From contig DVHD01000113.1 of NCBI GenBank assembly GCA_018712365.1, forward strand, positions 1 to 62,085: 62,085 bases of DNA. The letters are read 5' to 3'. A program made the position numbers and the translations under genes. A model generated the notes under the pieces. The model made no database searches. It saw only the letters and a program-made list of their open reading frames with translations, and was not told the origin of the DNA. Below are positions 3,220 to 52,575 of the stretch, piece by piece; within the stretch, counting starts at the first letter, position 1, and every line of letters begins with the position of its first letter. The stretch is from Candidatus Limisoma gallistercoris. GTDB taxonomy: Bacteria > Bacteroidota > Bacteroidia > Bacteroidales > Muribaculaceae.

Positions 3220-3540
3220 TTATGCAACTACGTCTTTAATCACAATCTGGGTGAAATACTGGCGGTGACCGTTCCAACGGCGATAGCCTTTGCGGCGTTT
3301 CTTCTTGAAGACGATTACCTTGTCACCTTTCACGAGGGGACGTTTAACCTCGCAAACTACTTTTGCCCCTTCCACGGTAGGAGCGCCGATTTTTACGGCA
3401 CCGTCGGCATCTACAAGGAGAACTTTGTCGAAATCAACTTTGTCGCCTTCTTTCACGTTCTCGCCGAGATAGTGGACATACAGGAATTTTCCGGCTTCTG
3501 CCTTGAACTGCTGTCCCTGAATTTCTACAATTGCGTACAT
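3220..3540 (-). CDS. rplU: 50S ribosomal protein L21
   Basis: [18 protein letters not shown] is typical of L21, and the gene sits immediately upstream of rpmA in the usual operon order. Confidence 0.97.
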
Positions 3541-3628
3541 TGTTTTTAGATAGAAATTTACAAATTAACCCGTGAGGCGGACGCGCCGCTTCGCGCGTCT
3601 CTTTTCGAGCCTATTCGGAATAAGCGCA

Positions 3629-3636
3629 CAAAAGTA
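3629..3636 (-). promoter_or_regulatory. -7 box TACTTTTG for rplU-rpmA
   Basis: Reverse complement of caaaagta matches TAnnTTTG. It lies about 90 nt upstream of the rplU ATG, and the leader contains a GC hairpin GACGCGCGAAGCGGCGCGTC. Confidence 0.5.
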
Positions 3637-3727
3637 CGGAATATTTTCCATCTGTGCAACATCCCGCGCTGGTTTGTGCTGAAAAAATTTTGTATTGAAA
3701 ATTCAGGAAGGCTTTAATGGGAAATGC

Positions 3728-20769: not shown

Positions 20770-20948
20770 GCGGCTGAAGTCGCCGGTTAAGGGTTATTGG
20801 TTATGGAGTGCGACCGCTATGCGGCCGGAGTGCTGGGTGATGTTGTTCCCCAAGCTGCGCTCCGCTCGCATGGGGTCTTCTGAAGTGTTGCAGCTACGCT
20901 GCAAGTTAAGGTATGGGCTATGAGTTATGTGGTGCGGCCGCTGTGCGG
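20770..20948. repeat. Composite intergenic repeat (short hairpin + GGTTAT run + Y module + hairpin)
   Basis: Contains GGGTTATTGGTTATGG, GTGCGACCGCTATGCGGCC, the hairpin CCCCAAGCTGCGCTCCGCTCGCATGGGG (20848-20875) and TTGCAGCTACGCTGCAA (20888-20904). All of these recur elsewhere in the window. Confidence 0.7.
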
Positions 20949-36105: not shown

Positions 36106-36263
36106 TGTAAGAGCCGCAAGCAGAGGGAGACACTTGTGTTAGAGTCTGCGCCTTTTTCTTTTTTAGCGACAAACATAGTGTCTTTTGATAAGACAAAATA
36201 CATATAGGTATGGGAAATGAAAACATTATATCCGATATGTTACCGAATTAGATAGAATTTTCC

Positions 36264-43989: not shown

Positions 43990-44772
43990 TTAATAATACA
44001 GTACTGTGCGGGTGACGAAGCGGTAGGCCTTTCCGTCGCGGTAAACCACCATTTCCGTCCAGTTGCCCTGCGGGTCGGCCTTGACGTATTTGTAGTCGTA
44101 TGTTCCCACGCCGTCAACCGCGAGTTTCGTGAGGCGGCCTTCGTTGTCGTAGGTGTATGTGCGCACGTCGGTATAGCCGTCCATCTCGTTTTCAACAGAT
44201 GTTTTCAGCACTTTTCCGGCCGCGTCGCGGATAGTGTAGTCCGCGCCGTTCTCGCCGTATTCCGTGACAGTGCCGTCGGCGTTCTTTTTCACGTTTTTAG
44301 CCGTTGCCGGATATTCGGCCGTGTAGGGGTCGCTTCCCTCGTAGTAGGTAGTGGTCTTTGTGTTCGCGAGATTGCCGGCCGCGTCGTAGGTGAACACGCT
44401 TTCCGAGAACAGTTTTCCGCTGTCGTAGCGTTTTTCGGTCGTTACCTTGCCGCCGGAATGTGTGTAAACGAATTTCGACTTTATTCCGTCGACTGTCGAT
44501 TCCACAGAAGCCAGCGAGCCGTCGGCTGCATATTGGCGTGTCTCGGCGTTCGGGATGATGCCGAAATCGTCGTACGACAGGTCGGTTGACAGACCCTTGA
44601 TTATCTCGCCGCTTCTCCACATTGTGGTGTATGTCGACACGGCTGTTTTCTTCACGTTGCCTTTCAGCCCGTCGGTAGCCGCGGTCTGCACGCCGGAAAG
44701 CTGTGCCTGCGCCGCTGCGGAGCAGCACAGTGCAAGGGCTATTGCTATTGTCTTGAAAATGCTTTTTTTCAT
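43990..44772 (-). CDS. Secreted protein with YD/Rhs-like short repeats
   Basis: Signal peptide MKKSIFKTIAIALALCCSAAAQA. Repeats FTYDAAGNL and YTYDNEGRLTK. Start set at the internal ATG 44772. Confidence 0.7.
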   Translation of the reverse strand: MKKSIFKTIAIALALCCSAAAQAQLSGVQTAATDGLKGNVKKTAVSTYTTMWRSGEIIKGLSTDLSYDDFGIIPNAETRQYAADGSLASVESTVDGIKSKFVYTHSGGKVTTEKRYDSGKLFSESVFTYDAAGNLANTKTTTYYEGSDPYTAEYPATAKNVKKNADGTVTEYGENGADYTIRDAAGKVLKTSVENEMDGYTDVRTYTYDNEGRLTKLAVDGVGTYDYKYVKADPQGNWTEMVVYRDGKAYRFVTRTVLYY

Positions 44773-44884: not shown

Positions 44885-45236
44885 AGCTTTAATTGTCTCC
44901 CTCTGTTTGCGAAGCCTGCGGAGCAAATAGGGGGAGTGGCACGGAGTGCCGAGGGGGTTTTAGCCTGCGGCTCAGGTTATGGGTTATTGGTTAGCCTGTG
45001 ACCCTTAATCTATAACCTGCCACGACTCTGGCACAGAACCCCTCCGTCCAGTTGGGACACCTCCCCTATTAACTGCGCTCCGCTCCGTGAACAGGGGAGG
45101 ACACTTTGTAGAGCGGCTTTTGTCGGATGACGCGGCTTTTGTCGGATGACGCGGCTTTTGTCGGATGACCCATAACCCTTGACCTATGACCTGTGGCGAA
45201 GCCACAATGACCTGTAGCGGCAGCTACAATAATCTG
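44885..45236. repeat. Z-family composite repeat, copy A
   Basis: About 220 nt (44893-45112) align with 46030-46250 with roughly a dozen differences by manual alignment. The copy ends in hairpins TGTGGCGAAGCCACA and TGTAGCGGCAGCTACA. Confidence 0.8.
45113..45169. repeat. Three perfect tandem copies of a 19-nt unit GCGGCTTTTGTCGGATGAC
   Basis: Read directly. Present only in Z copy A. Confidence 0.95.
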
Positions 45237-45950
45237 TCACTTGCCGCTGTAGAATTCGTTGCGCATATTGTCGTATTCCTCTTGGCTGAGGAATTTCAGC
45301 TCTGCAAATTTGCTGAAATCGTTGTTGTAGATGTCGAAAGTGATTATCCCGCCTTTTTCGCTGCACAATTCCCCGGCTTTCACGGTCTGCCCCGGCTGGT
45401 AGTCTGCTTCAAGTTTGCCGCTGTCGTTAGTGCGGAACGGATTCAGATGTCCGAAAATGATAGGTGTGTCGTCAGAAGTCAGTGCCACATAGTGCAGGGG
45501 AGCGTCAGTGAGGGCTTCTTCTCCGGCGGCGCACTCACTCTTGTTTTGTCTTACCACAAAGTCCTTTTTAGCCTCTACCTTGACACGTATGTTGTAATAT
45601 CCGGCATTGAAGAGCTTTACATATTCATCCACTTTCGCTTCTTTCACCTTGAATGCCTCATACGGGTCGCCTGAGAAATCCACATCGTTGCCAACGGCTT
45701 TCGGGCCTTCTTCGGCGGCGCGCTCGAAGCATTCTTTTTCGTAATCCTTGAACTCTTGCATTTTGCTTCTGATGCCGTCGTAGTCGCGTGAGTTGCGGGT
45801 CTCTTCCACGAGTTTTTTCCTGTCGGCGTTGAGCTTCGACAGAATGACAGGAGCTTCACCCAATGTGCTGTTGCTGCCTGAGCCGCAACCCGATACTACT
45901 ACCGACACTGCAAATGCCAATGCCGTGATTTTCAATAAGTTTCTTTTCAT
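45237..45950 (-). CDS. Lipoprotein of unknown function
   Basis: Lipobox VVSGC after MKRNLLKITALAFAVSV. No recognised domain. Confidence 0.75.
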   Translation of the reverse strand: MKRNLLKITALAFAVSVVVSGCGSGSNSTLGEAPVILSKLNADRKKLVEETRNSRDYDGIRSKMQEFKDYEKECFERAAEEGPKAVGNDVDFSGDPYEAFKVKEAKVDEYVKLFNAGYYNIRVKVEAKKDFVVRQNKSECAAGEEALTDAPLHYVALTSDDTPIIFGHLNPFRTNDSGKLEADYQPGQTVKAGELCSEKGGIITFDIYNNDFSKFAELKFLSQEEYDNMRNEFYSGK

Positions 45951-46014
45951 TGTTATTAGTTTATTAGTTAGTAATAAGTTTTTTGTGTTGTTTTAAATCC
46001 AATGCCCTCCAATA

Positions 46015-46305
46015 GGCTGGCATCCTTGATTGTCTCCCTCTGTTTGCGGAGCCTGCCGGAGCAAATAGGGGGAGCGGCACGGAGTGCCGAGGGGGTTGGA
46101 GCCTTCGGCTCTGGTTATAGGTTATTGGTTAGCCTGTGACCCTTAATCTATAACCTGCCACGACACTGGCACAGAACCCCTCCGTCCCGTTGGGACACCT
46201 CCCCTATTAACTGCGCTCCGCTCCGTGAACAGGGGAGGACACTTTGTAGCTCTGCTTTTTTGTGGCTGTCGCCGCGGGTTATTTCCGCTGTGGCGCAGCC
46301 ACACG
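46015..46305. repeat. Z-family composite repeat, copy B
   Basis: Near-identical to copy A over the core. Ends in TGTGGCTGTCGCCGCGGGTTAT and GTGGCGCAGCCAC hairpins that abut the stop codon of the giant gene. Confidence 0.8.
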
Positions 46306-49300
46306 CTATAGCGCGAATTTCACTGCCTTGGCTTCGCCTCCGGCTATGGCTTTCACCACATATACGCCGCCCGGGTAGCCCGCGCAGTCGATTTCGGCCT
46401 GCGGGTCGGAGGTGCGGACTATTTCCATCACCTGTCCCTGCATCGACACTATGTAGAGCGTGGCCTCGTCGCCGTCGTTCCAGCCCGACAGTCTCAGGTT
46501 GCCGCGGTTGTTGGCCACGCGCAACTGCCATTCTCCGTCGTTGTAGTCGCGCAACTCGGTTACGCCTCCTGCTCCCTCCTCGCAAACGATAGTAGCCTCT
46601 GCCGTCAGTCCGGAGCCGTCGAGAGCCGTGGCGCGTACCACCACGTTGCCCGAACCCTCGCCTGTGGCTGTCAGCAAGCCGTTGGCGTCGATGGTAGCCA
46701 ATCCGTCGCCTTCAACAATTTCCCACGCCACGCGGTTGAACGTTGCCGACAGCGGTTGCATCTCCGTGAACAGGTGCAATGCGCCTTGCCCGTAGGTCAG
46801 TCTCATTTCCGGCTCTACGGAAAGTATCTGCATGCTTGTAGCGTAGGTAGCGGCTATGGCCTCGCTTGTCGATACCACATTGGAGCTTACCGCCACGCCT
46901 GTCCTGCCCGCAGCTTTGGCGCGCTGCATATCGGCGGCAGTCGGGGTGAACGTAACGGCGTAGAACATTTCGCCCTGCGGCGCGTTCATATCCGTATAGT
47001 TCTGCTGGCTTCCCGCTATCTGTGTCAGCTCCGTCAGATTGTCGGCCGACGGCCCGCGCATGATGGTGTAGTAGTCCACCTCCATACCCTCGTAGCTGTT
47101 CCACATCAGGTTGTAGCCTCCTGCGGCAGCCAAGTTAATCATCACGTGGAGCGGCTTGTGCGGGTCGCTCGCGTAGCTCTTCTGTCCGTTATCGGCCGCA
47201 AGGTTGATTATGTAGCGTTCCGACTTCACTGCCGGGTCGGATTCCGGGTCGGTGAACGCTCCTTCCGACAGGTCGGCTTCTCCGATTACCGAGTATTTGT
47301 CCACGCGGTTGGTTTCCTTGCTTATCACAACCTTGCCCACCTGCTGCGGCATTCCTGTGGTGTTCCAGCTTACGGTGTAGTGTCCGGCAGCGTCGGCTGT
47401 GACGCCCGCTATCTCCGCCAACGGCATCGCTTCAGCCACTACGGCCTCGCGGCGGCAGGTGTTGCCCTGAATATCGTCCTCGACATACGACTCTATAGTG
47501 TATGTCCCTGTTTCCGCAAAGGTGATTACCGCAATCTCATCGCCGCGCTTCCACTCTATCGTCACGCGCTCGTCGTCGCAGCGGAATCCGCATTCGCGTG
47601 AGTTGTTGAGCATCGCTTCCGGCACTTCCACCTCAATGGGCGCGCCGGCAAGCGGATTCTCCGGCAATGTGAAGTCAACGTCCAGCAAATCCACAACGGT
47701 TATCGCCGAATTGATTGTGATTCCGCCGACGGTGAGGGTGATGTCCTTCACACCCGGCTCGTCCCACTTCGCCGTTATCTCGCCGTTGCCCTTGTCGGCA
47801 ACAACCGTTCCGCCGTCAAGCTCATAGCTGAACGATGAGGCTTGCGTTCCAACGTATTTCAGCGTTGTTTCCGCTCCCTTGGCCACCTTGTCGGCAGCGT
47901 CGACGTATCCGGCCGCGCTGATTGTGATTTCCACCGGCTCGGTCATCGGCGAATGCTCGTTGAAGGCGTCGATAGCCTGTATCTGCACCTCGTAGGTCTG
48001 TCCGGCCTCCAAGAATTCCGAAGGCACGGTCATCCGTGTGGATTTCTTGTACATATAGCTCGGCACTACGGCAGCCTCGTCGGAAAGGGCGTTCATCGGC
48101 GAGATTACGAAGCTGTTCTCCCCGGTCGCGCCTTTCTTCTTCACGCTCACGTTGTACTGCATCTGCACAGCCGGGGTGTGGTCGTCCTTAGCGTCGCTCC
48201 ACGTTATCAGCATGCCGTCGGCTGTCTGCTTAGCCATCACGCCCGACGGACGCTCCGGGGCTTGGTTGCCGCTCTTGCCCAAAGTCTTGTTGTAACCGCC
48301 GATTTGCGGATATGCGCCGTCGCTAAGGGCGATGAATGGCGATGCGTCGTTGCTAACGCCGTTGGTACGGCAAAGCTCCGCCTTGAAATCCGGCTGCATC
48401 AGCAAGATTGCGTATGAGGGCATAGCGTCGGTGCCTGCCGGGTCTTCCGCCTTTATCGGGATGTCGGGATAACCGTTGTTGTCGAAGTCGTAAAGCCTGA
48501 AATAGTCGTCTTTACTGCTAAGCAGAGAGAAATTATAGTCGCCGACAAGCGGTATCCGCACCTCTTCCTTGCACGGCCATTCGCTTTCCGGCTTTCCGGG
48601 AATCACGCGGATAAAGTTCTCGCCCGATTTGCGGTAGAACAAATCCAAATAGCCGTCGCTGTTGAGGTCGCCGAACAGTGCCGGGAAATTATACGAATCA
48701 AAACTTACCTCGAACATCGGCTTCTCGTCCTCGAACGAAAAATCACCTGTCGGGTCTTTCAGCAAAGCGTACATCGTCCATATGTCGTTGTCACTGTCGC
48801 GTTTCGACGCTATCGCGTCGATAAAGCCGTCGCGGTTTATGTCGTGATAATATTCAGCGTCCAGCCGAACTGTCTTTTCCGGATTTTCCTTGTCGGGAAT
48901 CTCGAAAGATTCCACTTGCGTGAACGTGATGTTGTCGCCTCCGTTCAGATAGCTTGGGTTGGCCGTGTGACTTGTGTCATAGAACCATTCCGGATAGCCG
49001 TCGTTGTTCATGTCGCCGAGCAGCAATCCTCGCGGTATATTTCTGTCTGCGTTTATCATCATAAGCTCTTTTGTGCTGTTCTCGAAGCTGAAATCGTCGA
49101 AGCCGCTGTTGATAAACACGTTGCCTTTCTCCTCGTCGGACATGAAATCCAAATAGCCGTCCTTGTTGAAGTCGAGGATGCCGTATGGAGTCGTGCTCAA
49201 ATCCGTATTGAACAATTTGCCGACTTTTGTGAATGTCCCGTCGCCATCGTTCGACCACATCCCTTTATGTGCTGATGCAGCAAATGAAGAAACAATGGCA

Positions 49301-52101
49301 TCCACATATCCGTCGCCATTGAAGTCGGCGAAACCTGCGTGATCCCAATCATAATAAATATCCTCAGGCACAAAATCATAGCTGCTGCCTATGCTGAACA
49401 TCAGCACATCGACGGTCTTCGTGTCGGCGGTCAGCGTGCTGCCGTCGGCGAGGGTAATGGTCAGTCCTATCTCGCGCTCGCCGTAGCTGCCGAACGTCAC
49501 ATCGATGCGGTTGCCTTCACCGCCGATTACAGTGCCGTCGGCAATGTCCCATTTGTAGGTCGCGCCGTCGATTTTGCGTGCCGCAAGCTGCAAGGTGTCG
49601 GCGGTGGTCATCTCCGAATGGCTGATGGAGAAGTCGGCCGCGGCTTTTTTGTGCTGATAGACAGCATCGTCCGACCATGCTCCTCCTAATCCTCCGGCAT
49701 CGACGGCCTGCACGGCTATGTAGTATGTGCCTTCAGCCATTGCCGACGGGTTGAACAGGTTGTAGAGGTTGCGCCCCATATTGCCTTCTTCCAGCGTGCG
49801 GCGGCGTCCGTCGGCAAGCGAGTTGGTGGCAAGAATGTCGGCTTTTCCGGGAGCCGTGCCTATGCGCAGCTCGTAGGTGAGGTCGCAGGTCGAAGTCTCG
49901 GCATCGCTTCCCTCCTCCCACGTTATGCGCAGCTTGCCGGAAGCATCGTCGTAGTAGGCCACCGGAGCCGCCATCTTCTCCGGCGCGGTGTTCTTGCGGT
50001 CGCCGAAATTCAGGATTTTACCTATTTCGTTTCCACGGGAATAAAAATATTCCACAAAACCGTCGTTGTCCATATCCCCGGCAACGTATCCATCGGCATT
50101 GCTGCCTGAACCTGGATAGAGATACGAATCGTGCAGCACTTCCGCCACCGTCACTTTGAGGCTGCCATCGCAGCCCAGCAACACGGTCTGTCTATTGCCT
50201 CCGTCGGTAGCGATGAATTCATACAAGCCATCGGCATTTACGTCACGGCAGCCGACAAATTCATATTCTTCAGTAAACGAATTTTCTCTCATTGTAAATT
50301 TGCCGTTTCCATCGTTGCGGAAAAATGCGATGAAACTGTAAGTGTTGTTGCCGCCCTCGTTATCCACGGTAAGTGCAACGTCAATGTCGCCGTCGTGGTC
50401 GAAATCCTTGCACCACACATTGCTTACGCTGCTGTTCTCGATAAGCAACTGCTGCGAATACGAACCATCCGACTGGTAAATCATCAGGTAAACCTTGCTC
50501 TCGTCGTCGTCAAACAGCACATAGTCGAGTACACCGTCGTCGTTGAGGTCGCACTGGTGGATTTCGCCTTTCTCGGGGCTTGTGTAGTAGTCGTTGCCAC
50601 CTATGTTATACAATATGCCGCCCACGTTGTTGTCGACAAGGTCGGGTATGCCGTCCTTGTTCAAGTCGGCGGCAAGGGTTATATTGATGTATGAATCCGG
50701 TATTGAACTGCCGTTAATCATCCAACCGTCGCTGAGCGAGGGGATATTGTCGCCCCAGTTGCCCGACAGTTCGTAGGTGGCGTTGTAGACATCCTCACGG
50801 TTGGTTGTAAACCGCAGCTTAGTTTTCAGATAGTCGCCGTCGGTCTGACGGTAATTGATGAAAAGGTCTGCATCTTCTGCCGTAAGAATGTCGGTCAGGC
50901 CGTTGTTGTCGGCATCGAGCAGCAGATAGCCTTCCGGGAGTTCCGCCTTATTGAATCCGTCGGTTTCAGGGTCGTATTTAAATGCCGATTTAGTATTTAT
51001 GAACACTGTCGGCACTCCGGAATTGTCGGAATCCAAAGCCCGGTAAATGCCTTTGATTCTATAATTATCATCGACGGGTTCAGCCATGCCGAGCGGCTGA
51101 AGCTCGTTGTTGTAATATCCTCCGCCGCTCGTTACGAACGACAGGCTGCCGTCGCCGTCGAAATCATACCACGTGGTGTTGGCCAACGATATTCTCGTGG
51201 GATATGTTACCGTTCTCAAAGCCGCGCCCTCAATCTTGCCCGGGCGTGTTGTTCCGACAAGATTGTATGTCTCAACGTCATCCCCGACAAAAAGAGTGCC
51301 TATTGATGCCATGTTCAGCTCATAAGCAATATTCTCTGAGATGTCAAGCCGCCCTATTTTTGCATTCTGAAGTACATGCGCAGAGGTTGTACTGTTAACT
51401 TTGAACCGTTCCAAAGCGCAATTCGCGAAGGCATAGTCGGCCACGCCGTCAAACTCTTCGTTTGCCACTTCTATCTCATCGGCGATGTCGAACCGTCCGC
51501 CTACGTTGGTCACCTTGTCAGTCAGCGTGGCTTTTTTTACAGAATAATATTCCCAATACGTGTCATCAGAAAACCGTGTCAATATAGCTTTCTGACAGTC
51601 GAACACCAAATTGTCGACAGATGTCGGGCCTTGGTCTTCTTCTCTTGAATTGATGCCCAAATTCAGCGTGCAGCCATATCCTTTGATAGTCAACGTGCCG
51701 AGTTCTATATTCTGTATTCTGATGGCAGTTTCGGCAGATGATGTTTCCACTTCTTCAATCAATGGTGACTGCGAGCTTAAATAAGCAAATGTCACAGAAG
51801 ATGGGAGCACGAGCTTCTTTACGGCCGGAGCAACAAAACCCGGTATAGGATAATCTGCAAGTCCAGATATGCGGGAACCTCCGGCTGAACCGACAATTGT
51901 CACGGTATATGTATTTCCGTTGCGGACAAATTGCTCCGGTATTTGCACTTCTTCGCTGCTGCCTGTATATTCCAAGGCTGTGGCTGTACTTCTGCTTAAG
52001 GAATATATGATCCCGTCTATCTCAACGTTTGCCGCTGCCGGCAAAGCGGAGCCTAATATGAAAATCAGGCTTACGAACCATTTTAATTTTAAGTTTTTCA
52101 T
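46306..52101 (-). CDS. Giant (~1930-aa) T9SS-secreted surface protein with BspA-like LRR N-terminus, many FG-GAP/VCBS-type calcium-binding repeats and FN3/Ig-like domains
   Basis: Signal peptide MKNLKLKWFVSLIFILGSALPAAA (start set at 52101). Repeated D-x-(D/N)-x-D-G-x-x-D motifs include DLNKDGIPDL, DFDHDGDIDV, DFDNNGYPDI and DLNSDGYLDL. The C-terminal ~80 aa (LYIVSMQGQVMEIV..VYVVKAIAGGEAKAVKFAL) resembles a T9SS sorting domain. Confidence 0.9.
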   Translation of the reverse strand: MKNLKLKWFVSLIFILGSALPAAANVEIDGIIYSLSRSTATALEYTGSSEEVQIPEQFVRNGNTYTVTIVGSAGGSRISGLADYPIPGFVAPAVKKLVLPSSVTFAYLSSQSPLIEEVETSSAETAIRIQNIELGTLTIKGYGCTLNLGINSREEDQGPTSVDNLVFDCQKAILTRFSDDTYWEYYSVKKATLTDKVTNVGGRFDIADEIEVANEEFDGVADYAFANCALERFKVNSTTSAHVLQNAKIGRLDISENIAYELNMASIGTLFVGDDVETYNLVGTTRPGKIEGAALRTVTYPTRISLANTTWYDFDGDGSLSFVTSGGGYYNNELQPLGMAEPVDDNYRIKGIYRALDSDNSGVPTVFINTKSAFKYDPETDGFNKAELPEGYLLLDADNNGLTDILTAEDADLFINYRQTDGDYLKTKLRFTTNREDVYNATYELSGNWGDNIPSLSDGWMINGSSIPDSYINITLAADLNKDGIPDLVDNNVGGILYNIGGNDYYTSPEKGEIHQCDLNDDGVLDYVLFDDDESKVYLMIYQSDGSYSQQLLIENSSVSNVWCKDFDHDGDIDVALTVDNEGGNNTYSFIAFFRNDGNGKFTMRENSFTEEYEFVGCRDVNADGLYEFIATDGGNRQTVLLGCDGSLKVTVAEVLHDSYLYPGSGSNADGYVAGDMDNDGFVEYFYSRGNEIGKILNFGDRKNTAPEKMAAPVAYYDDASGKLRITWEEGSDAETSTCDLTYELRIGTAPGKADILATNSLADGRRRTLEEGNMGRNLYNLFNPSAMAEGTYYIAVQAVDAGGLGGAWSDDAVYQHKKAAADFSISHSEMTTADTLQLAARKIDGATYKWDIADGTVIGGEGNRIDVTFGSYGEREIGLTITLADGSTLTADTKTVDVLMFSIGSSYDFVPEDIYYDWDHAGFADFNGDGYVDAIVSSFAASAHKGMWSNDGDGTFTKVGKLFNTDLSTTPYGILDFNKDGYLDFMSDEEKGNVFINSGFDDFSFENSTKELMMINADRNIPRGLLLGDMNNDGYPEWFYDTSHTANPSYLNGGDNITFTQVESFEIPDKENPEKTVRLDAEYYHDINRDGFIDAIASKRDSDNDIWTMYALLKDPTGDFSFEDEKPMFEVSFDSYNFPALFGDLNSDGYLDLFYRKSGENFIRVIPGKPESEWPCKEEVRIPLVGDYNFSLLSSKDDYFRLYDFDNNGYPDIPIKAEDPAGTDAMPSYAILLMQPDFKAELCRTNGVSNDASPFIALSDGAYPQIGGYNKTLGKSGNQAPERPSGVMAKQTADGMLITWSDAKDDHTPAVQMQYNVSVKKKGATGENSFVISPMNALSDEAAVVPSYMYKKSTRMTVPSEFLEAGQTYEVQIQAIDAFNEHSPMTEPVEITISAAGYVDAADKVAKGAETTLKYVGTQASSFSYELDGGTVVADKGNGEITAKWDEPGVKDITLTVGGITINSAITVVDLLDVDFTLPENPLAGAPIEVEVPEAMLNNSRECGFRCDDERVTIEWKRGDEIAVITFAETGTYTIESYVEDDIQGNTCRREAVVAEAMPLAEIAGVTADAAGHYTVSWNTTGMPQQVGKVVISKETNRVDKYSVIGEADLSEGAFTDPESDPAVKSERYIINLAADNGQKSYASDPHKPLHVMINLAAAGGYNLMWNSYEGMEVDYYTIMRGPSADNLTELTQIAGSQQNYTDMNAPQGEMFYAVTFTPTAADMQRAKAAGRTGVAVSSNVVSTSEAIAATYATSMQILSVEPEMRLTYGQGALHLFTEMQPLSATFNRVAWEIVEGDGLATIDANGLLTATGEGSGNVVVRATALDGSGLTAEATIVCEEGAGGVTELRDYNDGEWQLRVANNRGNLRLSGWNDGDEATLYIVSMQGQVMEIVRTSDPQAEIDCAGYPGGVYVVKAIAGGEAKAVKFAL

Positions 52102-52159
52102 ACCTATATGTTTTATTATTGATAATTCATTCTTCGACAGAACAACTGCTCTGTAGTTG

Positions 52160-52575
52160 CCGTGCCTGTGGCTTGGTTGCTTCAAGCGCGACCTCTACGA
52201 GGCCGGTGCTTTGCCGCTCTATGACCCACGGCTGAAGCCGTGGGTTACGCATCAACAGCCTCTACGAGGCTGTACTGCACTGCTGTCTGCTCTCCTGCGC
52301 CGTCGCCCGCCTCCTATGAGGCCTGCATCCTTGATTGTCTCCCTCTGTTTGCGGAGCAAATAGGGGGAGTGGCACGGAGTGCCGAGGGGGTTGATACCTG
52401 CGGCCTCTGCCGCTATAACCTATAACCCTTAACCTCTAACCTGCAGCGCAAGCTGCAATAACCTGTAACCTGTGGCGGAGCCACAATAAAGAACCCCTCC
52501 GGGTCTTCGACCCACTTCCCCTATTAACTCCGCTCCGCTTCGTGAACAGGGGAGGACACTTTTCTGCTGCTTCAA
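52160..52575. repeat. Composite repeat: X fragment + Z copy C + hairpin/ATAACC units
   Basis: Contains GCGACCTCTACGAGGCC..CCCACGGCTGAAGCCGTGGGTTACGC (X). It also has TTGTCTCCCTCTGTTTGCGGAGCAAATAGGGGGAGTGGCACGGAGTGCCGAGGGGGTT and CTTCCCCTATTAACTCCGCTCCGCTTCGTGAACAGGGGAGG (Z), plus TGCAGCGCAAGCTGCA and TGTGGCGGAGCCACA hairpins. Confidence 0.75.

Follow-up and report, generated by a model that had tools for sequence, protein, structure and literature searches.

Z, a probable REP-like palindromic repeat with covarying hairpin arms, flanks a lipoprotein gene of Candidatus Limisoma

Among the short repeats described in bacteria are BOX of the pneumococcus, Correia/NEMIS of Neisseria, ERIC/IRU of the enterobacteria and the BrickBuilt MITE of Porphyromonas gingivalis; Correia elements are accompanied by TA target duplications, and BrickBuilt combines 23-bp terminal inverted repeats (TIRs) with a 41-bp minisatellite. 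In Pseudomonas and the Enterobacteria, REP and BIME sequences, together with the REPINs in which REP doublets form hairpins, are handled by RAYT/TnpA_REP (PMC3116915, PMC3337134). A further super-family of REPs, tagged with CGTC or TGTC and built of 8- to 9-bp stems, 4- to 5-nt loops and a CCA tail, was described by Di Nocera et al. in 2013 (PMC3733652). How does a repeat of the chicken-gut Muribaculaceae compare with these systems? The repeat, Z, lies in a 62,085-nt stretch of DNA (the window) from a 2.4-Mb Candidatus Limisoma MAG (G000). We consider it probable that Z is a non-coding, palindromic, dispersed intergenic repeat of the REP/REPIN/BIME kind; on sequence evidence, it appears to be neither a discrete RNA gene nor a gene cassette.

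An earlier note on this DNA had reported two direct repeats around a lipoprotein gene, ~95% identical and differing at about a dozen positions, and our searches agree. The two copies, ZA and ZB, are 94 to 95% identical (BLAST, 94% over 234 nt, or ~13 differences). A repeat search matched 44919-45121 to 46057-46259 (203 nt, 95%) and 44889-44919 to 46026-46056 (31 nt, 94%), the one-base offset between these matches being due to a single indel. ZA (44894..45103) is a full doublet with its left arm at 44894-44959, its center at 44960-45036 and its right arm at 45037-45103, and it is located between the stop of the lipoprotein gene and the start of an RHS-repeat lipoprotein gene. ZB (46031..46241), also a full doublet (left arm 46031-46097, right arm 46175-46241), is located between the stop of a giant surface-protein gene and the start of the lipoprotein gene, ~80 nt upstream of the latter. 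Scored with R1, a covariance model that serves as a sequence-plus-structure profile of the arm, the arms of ZA reach 83.4 and 83.1 bits (nhmmer detects both) and those of ZB 81.3 and 89.7 bits. Alignment revealed a full third copy, ZC (52336..52558), in the gap between the giant gene and its divergent upstream neighbor. ZC is 71% identical to ZA, with R1 arm scores of 73.6 and 85.8 bits; its arms are as in ZA and ZB, with the hairpin-1 loop deleted in the left arm, and its center is different.

The lipoprotein gene enclosed by ZA and ZB (45237..45950, minus strand; an open reading frame of 237 aa with the start MKRNLLKITALAFAVSVVVSGC) gave zero family matches in a Pfam search, and its exact protein is present in at least 23 metagenome contigs. 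To one side is the RHS-repeat lipoprotein gene (43990..44772, minus strand; 260 aa, from Pfam and strain contigs), the true start of which is MKKSIFKT at 44772, with ZA ~120 nt upstream. To the other side is the giant gene (46306..52185, minus strand; 1959 aa, from its open reading frame and Pfam), which encodes a surface protein with FG-GAP, PKD, fn3 and Big_2 domains and whose 3' end abuts ZB. This gene had been said to begin right after ZB; because all three genes are on the minus strand, it instead ends there. Each of ZA, ZB and ZC sits either inside a single same-strand gene cluster or upstream of it.

The similarity between ZA and ZB runs ~30 nt past the element on one side. Beyond the right arm of ZA we located a flank common to both copies (CTTTGTAG..., 45104..45125, from strain-contig alignment), the match of which adjoins ZB at 46242..46262 (repeat search and strain alignment); in contigs of other strains this shared flank shows ~31 nt of similarity. 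ZA is also adjoined by a variable-number tandem repeat of three 19-nt units, GCGGCTTTTGTCGGATGAC (45113..45169); in the strain alignment, the array of other strains is diverged or consists of one or two units. At 45176..45233 we noted ATAACC/GACCT words together with a pair of small hairpins that covary, TGTGGC-GAAG-CCACA and TGTAGC-GGCA-GCTACA. These hairpins are of the same type as the one in the Z center, and similar units lie beside other Z copies. A relic of an arm, its terminal 17 nt (GCAAGCAGAGGGAGACA), was recovered by 16-mer search on the minus strand at 36116..36133, at the end of an array of GGTTAT words.

The local pairings that the earlier note had listed are all present, namely, GTCTCCCTCTGTTTGC/GCAAATAGGGGGAG, GGCAC-GGA-GTGCC, TGCCA-CGAC(T/A)C-TGGCA and CCTCCCCT/AGGGGAGG, as are the long-range pair CCGAGGGGGTT/AACCCCTCCG and the loop variants AGCC-TGC-GGCT versus AGCC-TTC-GGCT. 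A fifth hairpin in the right half, GTCC[A/C]-GTT-GGGAC, had been overlooked; it is the mirror of GGCAC-GGA-GTGCC. Within Z, each half is the inverted repeat of the other, and the 16-mer GTCTCCCTCTGTTTGC occurs four times in the window at three or fewer mismatches compared to 0.33 occurrences expected. Z is a pseudo-symmetric palindrome, a ~200-nt doublet of two arms set head to head around a variable center, that can fold as one long rod or, through its local hairpins, as a cruciform. Each arm has 67 nt and consists of 5'-TGTC, a 14-bp imperfect hairpin with a 10- to 15-nt loop, a 5-bp hairpin and a GGAGGGGTT tail. The ends of the element are sharp (TGTC...GACA). TGTC is the foot found at every arm end; its T1, G2 and T3 are invariant, and C4 pairs with G47 in 64 of 67 arms.

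Covariance support for the fold, which the earlier note had proposed to look for along with a count of genomic copies and a comparison of the lipoprotein gene among strains, proved strong. Across 67 distinct arms, 94.6% of cells in the arm hairpin were paired, versus 40 to 50% when the partners were slid (40 to 60% for the slid controls overall), and compensatory change, with both sides altered, was found in 7 of the 19 pairs. In held-out arms from two genomes that played no part in model building (G005 and G006), 96.4% of cells were paired and 10 of the 19 pairs were compensatory. One G·T (G:U) wobble pair was invariant in 33 of these 34 held-out arms.

Counting the genomic copies revealed a dispersed family of ~50 arms. 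With nhmmer, we found 50 arms in G000, arranged as 16 doublets and ~17 solo arms, many of them at contig ends. The R1 counts were 48 in G000, 46 in G015, 61 in G005, 31 in G018 and 17 in G006; these are the 5 carrier species, with 17 to 61 arms each, among the 20 species of the genus, and the remaining 15 have 0 to 2 arms each. Diverged homologous arms (30 to 56 bits) occur in other Muribaculaceae genera, for example, in 5 of 5 genomes of one genus. A search of 185,579 species genomes for the exact arm pattern gave hits in Ca. Limisoma faecipullorum and in a single uncultured Muribaculaceae MAG, and in no others. The pattern was absent from the viral contigs searched, and carriage of Z by phage was rejected on that basis. 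All of the 48 to 50 arms in G000 lie in intergenic gaps. Genome-wide, they are found mostly in ordinary 3' gaps and also in inverted orientation and in divergent gaps; convergent gaps hold 7 of 21 classified arm sites, versus 15% of all gaps. Both doublets and solo arms occur in either orientation relative to the flanking genes, and the family decays into solo arms and fragments.

Like REP and REPIN sequences (PMC3116915, PMC3337134), Z is made of imperfect palindromic units with compensatory variation, and like REPINs, it forms inverted doublets with a spacer as well as decayed singlets. It further shares with them an extragenic location, tens of copies per genome, the lack of a target duplication, clustering with other hairpin repeats into mosaics and a lineage-restricted persistence. 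In contrast to REP, a single hairpin of ~25 to 35 nt with GTAG, the Z arm has 67 nt, two hairpins and a TGTC end; the conserved unpaired 5' GTAG of REP/REPIN sequences is absent from Z, where the foot is TGTC. Unlike that of REPINs, the spacer of Z is long (60 to 140 nt) and of several unrelated types. The resemblance to the CGTC/TGTC-tagged REPs (PMC3733652) lies in a terminal TGTC-type tag, a predominance of head-to-head dimers with heterodimers preferred, presence in the Bacteroidetes and the absence of any dedicated transposase found. Z differs from them in its 14-bp stem, 10- to 15-nt loop, second 5-bp hairpin and GGAGGGGTT tail, and the final C of its tag is paired, whereas the tag of those REPs is unpaired. 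BOX, Correia/NEMIS, ERIC/IRU and BrickBuilt (PMC4596501) are like Z in length (100 to 300 nt), in having terminal inverted repeats around an interior that is modular or variable, and in being intergenic, often cotranscribed with neighbors and assembly breaking. They have no sequence similarity to Z, however, and the arms of Z are autonomous hairpin units that also occur solo.

A further difference from REP/RAYT systems is that no RAYT gene was found flanked by Z arms. Nine Y1_Tnp genes (three in G000 and six in relatives) were inspected in G000, G015, G018, G121 and G098 with unfiltered R1, and none was flanked by arms (best score, 12 bits; E = 0.08); their flanks carry other hairpin arrays. 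Arms and Y1 genes also do not co-occur: the arm-rich genomes G005, G006, G143, G068 and G065 show no Y1_Tnp gene and the arm-free G017 has one, some of these MAGs being incomplete. A RAYT link was rejected on these two grounds. The loop motif CTGCGCTCCGC alone is common to the Y1_Tnp-flanking hairpins and to a hairpin beside the C120 copy. Three other candidates were also discarded. For an autonomous element, the only inverted arm pair 0.7 to 3 kb apart in G000 (C8:26872/28304) encloses an esterase-like gene and no transposase, and no arm pair in this MAG, which is 84% complete, encloses a transposase. In G121, arm clusters lie on either side of a DUF559 endonuclease-like gene, yet G000 is without DUF559. 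Finally, the TTTGC-type arm (the variant with TATTTG) faces the downstream gene in all three window copies; it was rejected as an outward promoter in view of copies C10 and C46, which are not so oriented, and the lack of a -33 TTTG.

The earlier note had left two options for Z, a structured RNA of ~220 nt or a module that is mobile or recombinogenic. The recombinogenic option is supported by the dispersed family and by the conversion mosaics and hybrid junctions described below; the discrete-RNA option is not, given that both strands fold, solo arms lie in both orientations and Rfam returned no match. Could Z, or its arm, nonetheless act mainly as a structured RNA that has multiplied on account of its usefulness, whether as a small RNA or in cis within polycistronic transcripts (as a stabilizer, attenuator, terminator or processing site)? 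We regard this as unlikely. The invariant G·U wobble is strand specific and would fit an RNA role equally well, but either strand of a doublet is wobble compatible for one arm and mismatched for the other, so that no single transcript has both arms well oriented. Strong hairpin covariation is likewise what such an RNA would display, yet the two strands of ZA fold equally well (z scores of -5.3 and -5.2). The location of all three window copies in or upstream of one same-strand gene cluster, the preference for gaps downstream of genes and the ability of E. coli REP elements to stabilize upstream mRNA would all suit a cis-acting role. Against it, doublets lie in both orientations, arms also occupy divergent and convergent gaps, and no T-run follows the hairpins. 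Rfam 15 at the gathering score found only a tRNA in the window, and around Z, at E values up to 10, the best matches were plant miRNA models (E = 2 to 5), with nothing relevant. The family is missing (0 to 2 arms) from 15 of the 20 species of the genus and is therefore dispensable.

It is quite improbable that Z is a classical MITE, that is, an element derived by deletion from a DDE-transposase insertion sequence and moved in trans, by cut-and-paste, via its TIRs. A ~200-nt, multicopy, intergenic element with 67-nt TIRs around a variable center has the outward form of one, but target-site duplications of more than one base were found in 0 of 15 full elements (14 had none, and one had a single shared base). 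Each arm is a covarying hairpin in itself and can occur singly, and the arms of one doublet are usually different sequence variants, with a mean identity of 70% compared to 76% between elements. Moreover, what the sole inverted arm pair 0.7 to 3 kb apart encloses is the esterase gene, not a transposase.

Comparison among strains supports the view that Z copies recombine with each other. The identity of ZA to ZB is 88.6% in G015, 89.6 to 92.9% in other strains and 95.3% in the window, a range that indicates gene conversion. In addition, ZA and ZB of the window have derived variants in common, and mosaics are found among strains. When an arm had a neighboring element within 8 kb, its best genome-wide match was that neighbor in 8 of 15 cases. 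A ZA/ZB hybrid joined to the lipoprotein leader was present in two independent metagenome contigs, L098 (from ERZ28613918) and L099 (from ERZ24773522). This is probably the junction expected from a tandem duplication (amplification) or an excised circle of the enclosed gene, although, both contigs being short and of low coverage, it could be a path taken through the repeat in assembly. In the hybrid, the crossover falls within a 35-nt stretch of ZA/ZB identity, as would be predicted for homologous rather than site-specific exchange. A half-deleted ZA, with one arm lost, was found in five to six assemblies, including L100, L105, L109, L110 and L114. The lipoprotein gene itself is present in every assembly with context, and no deletion allele was detected in ~15 such assemblies (contigs in which the lipoprotein or the RHS protein was matched exactly). 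The earlier note expected that the direct repeats would allow deletion or amplification of this gene; the junction in two contigs would fit amplification or excision.

In the Z-free relative G016, homologues of the lipoprotein and RHS genes lie 29 nt apart, which suggests that Z entered pre-existing gaps. We compared the flanks of 20 relatives' copies with G000, and those of 11 G000 copies with G015 and G018, and found no filled/empty site pair that differed by exactly one element. The differences in Z presence between species were all larger composite blocks, deletions or rearrangements. Transposition of Z therefore remains putative. Integron attC sites have an R''/R' core (RYYYAAC...GTTRRRY), stand in same-orientation arrays beside intI and delimit cassettes absent from relatives; Z arms, by contrast, are dispersed in both orientations, and the gene they enclose is resident in the Z-free relative. 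That the Z copies are recombination sites of a mobile gene cassette, integron-attC-like or otherwise site specific, with the lipoprotein gene as its cargo, is very improbable: same-orientation copies do separate successive same-strand genes and the junction in two contigs is compatible with a circle, but the two homologues are only 29 nt apart without Z, the gene occurs wherever context is available, arms lie mostly at ordinary 3' gaps and also inverted, the ends are TGTC/GACA rather than the attC core GTTRRRY, and a crossover in a 35-nt identity stretch fits homologous exchange. Judged from these sequences, the lipoprotein gene is not supported as a cassette and appears to be resident.

We favor the reading of Z as a REP-like repeat. 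What is conserved would be the arm hairpin in its single-stranded form, complete with a G·T wobble that does not vary and conserved ends, TGTC and GGAGGGGTT, that stay unpaired, a combination for which a recognition hairpin is the most likely role; by analogy with REP/RAYT, the arm would then most likely be recognized by an enzyme that copies or moves it in the form of single-stranded DNA. The Y1 transposases present are not linked to the arms. Z would have come into pre-existing gaps of the surface-protein gene cluster. ZA and ZB, with their shared flank of ~30 nt and ~89% identity in the sister species, are presumably local paralogs whose identity was probably lifted to 95% by gene conversion in the lineage of the window. 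As direct repeats they could mediate unequal crossing-over, of which the duplication or circle junction in two contigs may be a product. A putative effect of Z on transcript stability or termination is possible. Rather doubtful, in our estimation, is the idea that the 67-nt double-hairpin arm is the recognition element of some non-RAYT enzyme, which would be a second, transposase-orphan route for REP-like repeats to multiply in the Muribaculaceae, or is an RNA-level binding site for a host factor that influences how surface-protein operons are expressed.

For work on these genomes, the Z family breaks MAG assemblies, with many copies at contig ends, and in annotation, its copies can be taken wrongly for small RNAs or for the edges of cassettes. 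For the organism, Z is a means by which the surface-protein loci of an abundant poultry-gut lineage vary, through gene conversion, the loss of half an element, a tandem repeat of variable number and what is probably a gene duplication junction. As a REP-like repeat with strong hairpin covariation and no linked Y1 transposase, Z offers a test case for the spread of transposase-orphan palindromes.

On the basis of the window sequence, the lipoprotein gene is flanked by two near-identical elements in direct orientation, as the earlier note had described. A repeat search matched the copies ZA and ZB over 203 nt at 95% (44919-45121 versus 46057-46259) and over a second segment of 31 nt at 94% (44889-44919 versus 46026-46056), and BLAST aligned them over 234 nt at 94%; every stem that the note had listed was found. 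The giant FG-GAP/PKD protein gene (46306-52185), the lipoprotein gene (45237-45950), and the RHS-repeat lipoprotein gene (true start 44772) are all three on the minus strand. As transcribed, the locus runs from the giant gene through ZB, the lipoprotein gene, a threefold 19-nt repeat with two small hairpins, and ZA to the RHS-repeat lipoprotein gene. Upstream of the giant gene there is a third copy, ZC, at 52336-52558 with 71% identity, and a 17-nt arm relic lies at 36116-36133. The 19-nt unit beside ZA (45113-45169, three perfect tandem copies) is a variable-number tandem repeat, of which strains have one to three units or a diverged form.

What is the unit that is repeated? Alignment of ten full Z copies from the window's own MAG (G000) revealed two conserved ends, the right being the reverse complement of the left, around an unrelated and variable center. 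Each end is a 67-nt arm consisting, in order, of TGTC, a 14-bp hairpin whose stem comes mainly in two variants (CTCCCTCTGTTTGC/GCAAATAGGGGGAG and CCTCCCCTGTTCAC/AGTTAATAGGGGAGG), a 5-bp hairpin whose stem occurs in many sequences, and GGAGGGGTT. The long-range pairing proposed earlier is present and amounts to the two arms meeting at their inner ends. The boundaries of full elements are sharp (TGTC...GACA), and a target duplication of more than one base was seen in 0 of 15 of them. Because arms are less alike within one element (mean identity, 70%) than between different elements (76%), the doublets are usually heterodimers. The ZA/ZB center, with GGTTAT/ATAACC words and a small hairpin, was assigned to a repeat family other than Z; the centers of other copies are quite different from it and are themselves palindromic. 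Separately, 55 occurrences of the loop motif GCGCTCCGC were counted in the whole G000 genome versus 14.5 expected; in the window it is at 20857, 33472, 45075, and 46213. It mostly forms the apex of hairpins on differing stems (ACCCCA.., ACCGCA.., ACCTACGG..); among these are the Z right arm and a hairpin adjoining the Y1 gene on contig C120.

Intra-strand pairing in Z is under constraint, and the element has no preferred strand. Among 67 distinct arms from three genomes, standard pairs filled 94.6% of cells versus 40 to 50% with the partners slid, and 7 of 19 base pairs varied on both sides. In 35 distinct arms from two species of the genus outside model building (G005 and G006), whose alignment was fitted to the arm covariance model R1 and is thus somewhat biased toward the structure, 96.4% were paired, with double-sided changes in 10 of 19 pairs and covariation in all five small-hairpin pairs. 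A single G·T(U) wobble stays constant (66/66 in the first set, 33/34 in the second) and would be an A·C mismatch on the complementary strand; R1 scores of an arm are 74 to 90 bits versus 13 to 18 bits on the reverse strand. The favorable strand of one arm in a doublet is therefore opposite to that of the other. Either strand of whole ZA folds into a rod, with z-scores of -5.3 and -5.2 that we take as equal. Constrained pairing with no strand preference is more in keeping with a palindrome in DNA that is read in the form of single-stranded hairpins than with one transcript.

In G000 (2.41 Mb, 158 contigs, 84% complete, with the window as contig C32), an nhmmer search with the arm profile found 50 arms, with 16 doublets and about 17 arms standing alone; many lie at contig ends. 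Scanning 20 species of the genus, R1 found 48 arms in G000, 46 in the sister species G015, 61 in G005, 31 in G018, 17 in G006, and 0 to 2 in the remaining 15. The exact arm pattern, sought in 185,579 species genomes, was found only in Candidatus Limisoma faecipullorum and one uncultured Muribaculaceae MAG, a result that places the lineage among chicken-gut Muribaculaceae; none was found in viral contigs. Across 120 family genomes, R1 gave weaker multicopy matches outside the genus, in 5/5 genomes of one other genus and with 23 copies in one genome of another; their R1 alignments have the same architecture (GTC, CTCCTCTG...TAGGGGAGG, 5-bp hairpin, GGAGGGGTT). Every arm site falls between genes on a gene map drawn crudely from ORFs. 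The 21 classified sites comprise 12 tandem, 7 convergent, and 2 divergent gaps, compared with 15% convergent and 15% divergent among all G000 gaps, and doublets face either way with respect to the genes beside them.

At G000 C8:26790-29470, three solo arms of 100% identity enclose an SGNH/esterase-like gene and a META/HslJ-like lipoprotein gene, and beside them lie ACCCCAAG-CTGCGCTCCGCTTA-CTTGGGGT hairpins in inverted orientation; this segment may be able to invert or may have been duplicated recently. In another Muribaculaceae genus (L143; G121:C4:112500-121500), a 134-aa DUF559 gene (Vsr-like endonuclease fold; 3313-3717, minus strand) is flanked by two Z-type arm clusters within an Mfa-like fimbrillin cluster. 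No DUF559 gene was found in G000.

Comparisons between species gave no clean pair of filled and empty Z sites; the sites that differ are composite. At the first (L059; G015:C9:22000-26000), a 1-kb gap holds two Z copies and an apparent C-terminal sorting domain remnant, and the flanking genes of the G000 counterpart (C93:27521-27533) are 11 nt apart. At the second, G000 has an extra block of other hairpins and Z compared with G018. The third, on G000 contig C141, has three states: a full Z in G018, a single-hairpin mini-element (TGTCTCCC...GGGGGAGACA) in G015, and one arm in G000, where a 4.7-kb type I restriction-modification insert (C141:13695-18340) abuts the solo arm. Judged by eye from their sequences, the insert proteins are HsdM-like (712 aa) and HsdS-like (733 aa). 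Elsewhere in G000 (C71:1500-1705), two regions that are on separate contigs in both G015 and G018 meet at a Z whose left arm is degenerate; either a rearrangement broke at the repeat or the MAG contig is chimeric.

Is the lipoprotein gene a cassette carried between ZA and ZB? Comparison with relatives indicates that it is not. In G016, which belongs to the genus but is free of the Z family, homologues of this gene (34% identity) and of the RHS-repeat lipoprotein gene (36%) are direct neighbors, 29 nt apart. The arrangement ZC, giant gene, ZB, lipoprotein gene, ZA is kept in G015 (91 to 95% DNA identity), and all of about 15 metagenome contigs with context carry the lipoprotein gene. A discrete RNA made from Z, as the earlier note had alternatively suggested, likewise found no support in the sequences.

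The note's other reading, a recombinogenic module, is supported. ZA and ZB share about 30 nt of flank past one arm, so they are local paralogues and did not arrive independently. ZA-ZB identity is 88.6% in G015, 89.6% in the metagenome strain contig L093, 91.9 to 92.9% in L091, L094, and L095, and 95.3% in the window and L092. Window ZB has ZA-type states at positions differing in the ZB of other strains, and loop GGAGCGGAGCGCAG has a derived G in both window copies, with C in ZA and T..T in ZB in other lineages. This pattern is a gene conversion signature and is general among Z elements: for 8 of the 15 arms having a neighboring element within 8 kb, that element is the best genome-wide match. 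Two contigs from different studies (L098, ERZ28613918; L099, ERZ24773522) run from the lipoprotein 3' end through the 5' part of ZA and a ZB-type 3' part into the lipoprotein leader. The putative hybrid would be exactly the junction of a tandem duplication (unequal exchange) or an excised circle. Both contigs are short and of low coverage, but a trivial assembly path is somewhat disfavored because the crossover lies within only 35 nt of identity and the ZB-type part is not identical to the upstream ZB of the same contigs. L100, L105 (105 kb), L109, L110, and L114 (114 kb) carry a shortened ZA from which the second arm is missing together with about 95 nt of flank, and two to four ATAACCT heptads are at the break; as G015 has the full form, this is most simply a deletion.

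G000 has three Y1_Tnp transposase genes of ∼150 aa each (C61:6845-7177, C10:15018-15359, and C120:5412-5753), all with the motif YI.NQ..HH of subclass 1.2 of Quentin et al. (PMC6006769). Hairpin structures are generally absent from that subclass (PMC6006769), whereas all three G000 genes are bracketed by long inverted arrays of other GC-rich hairpins (e.g., CGACCTCTACGAGGCCG and CCCACGGCCAAGGCCGTGGG). Of nine Y1 genes scanned in five genomes with arms (R1 without filters), none has a Z arm beside it, no Y1 gene was found in the arm-rich genomes G005, G143, and G068, and about half of Muribaculaceae genomes have a Y1 gene whatever their arm content. In the flank scan and this distribution, Z thus does not show the RAYT link that defines REP/REPIN systems. 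The CGTC/TGTC-tagged REPs of Di Nocera et al. (PMC3733652) are, like Z, head-to-head heterodimers without a dedicated transposase, but Z differs from them in hairpin dimensions. Z is outside the RAYT-linked families and the published CGTC families; it works like a REPIN/BIME-type palindromic repeat and is placed in that general kind.
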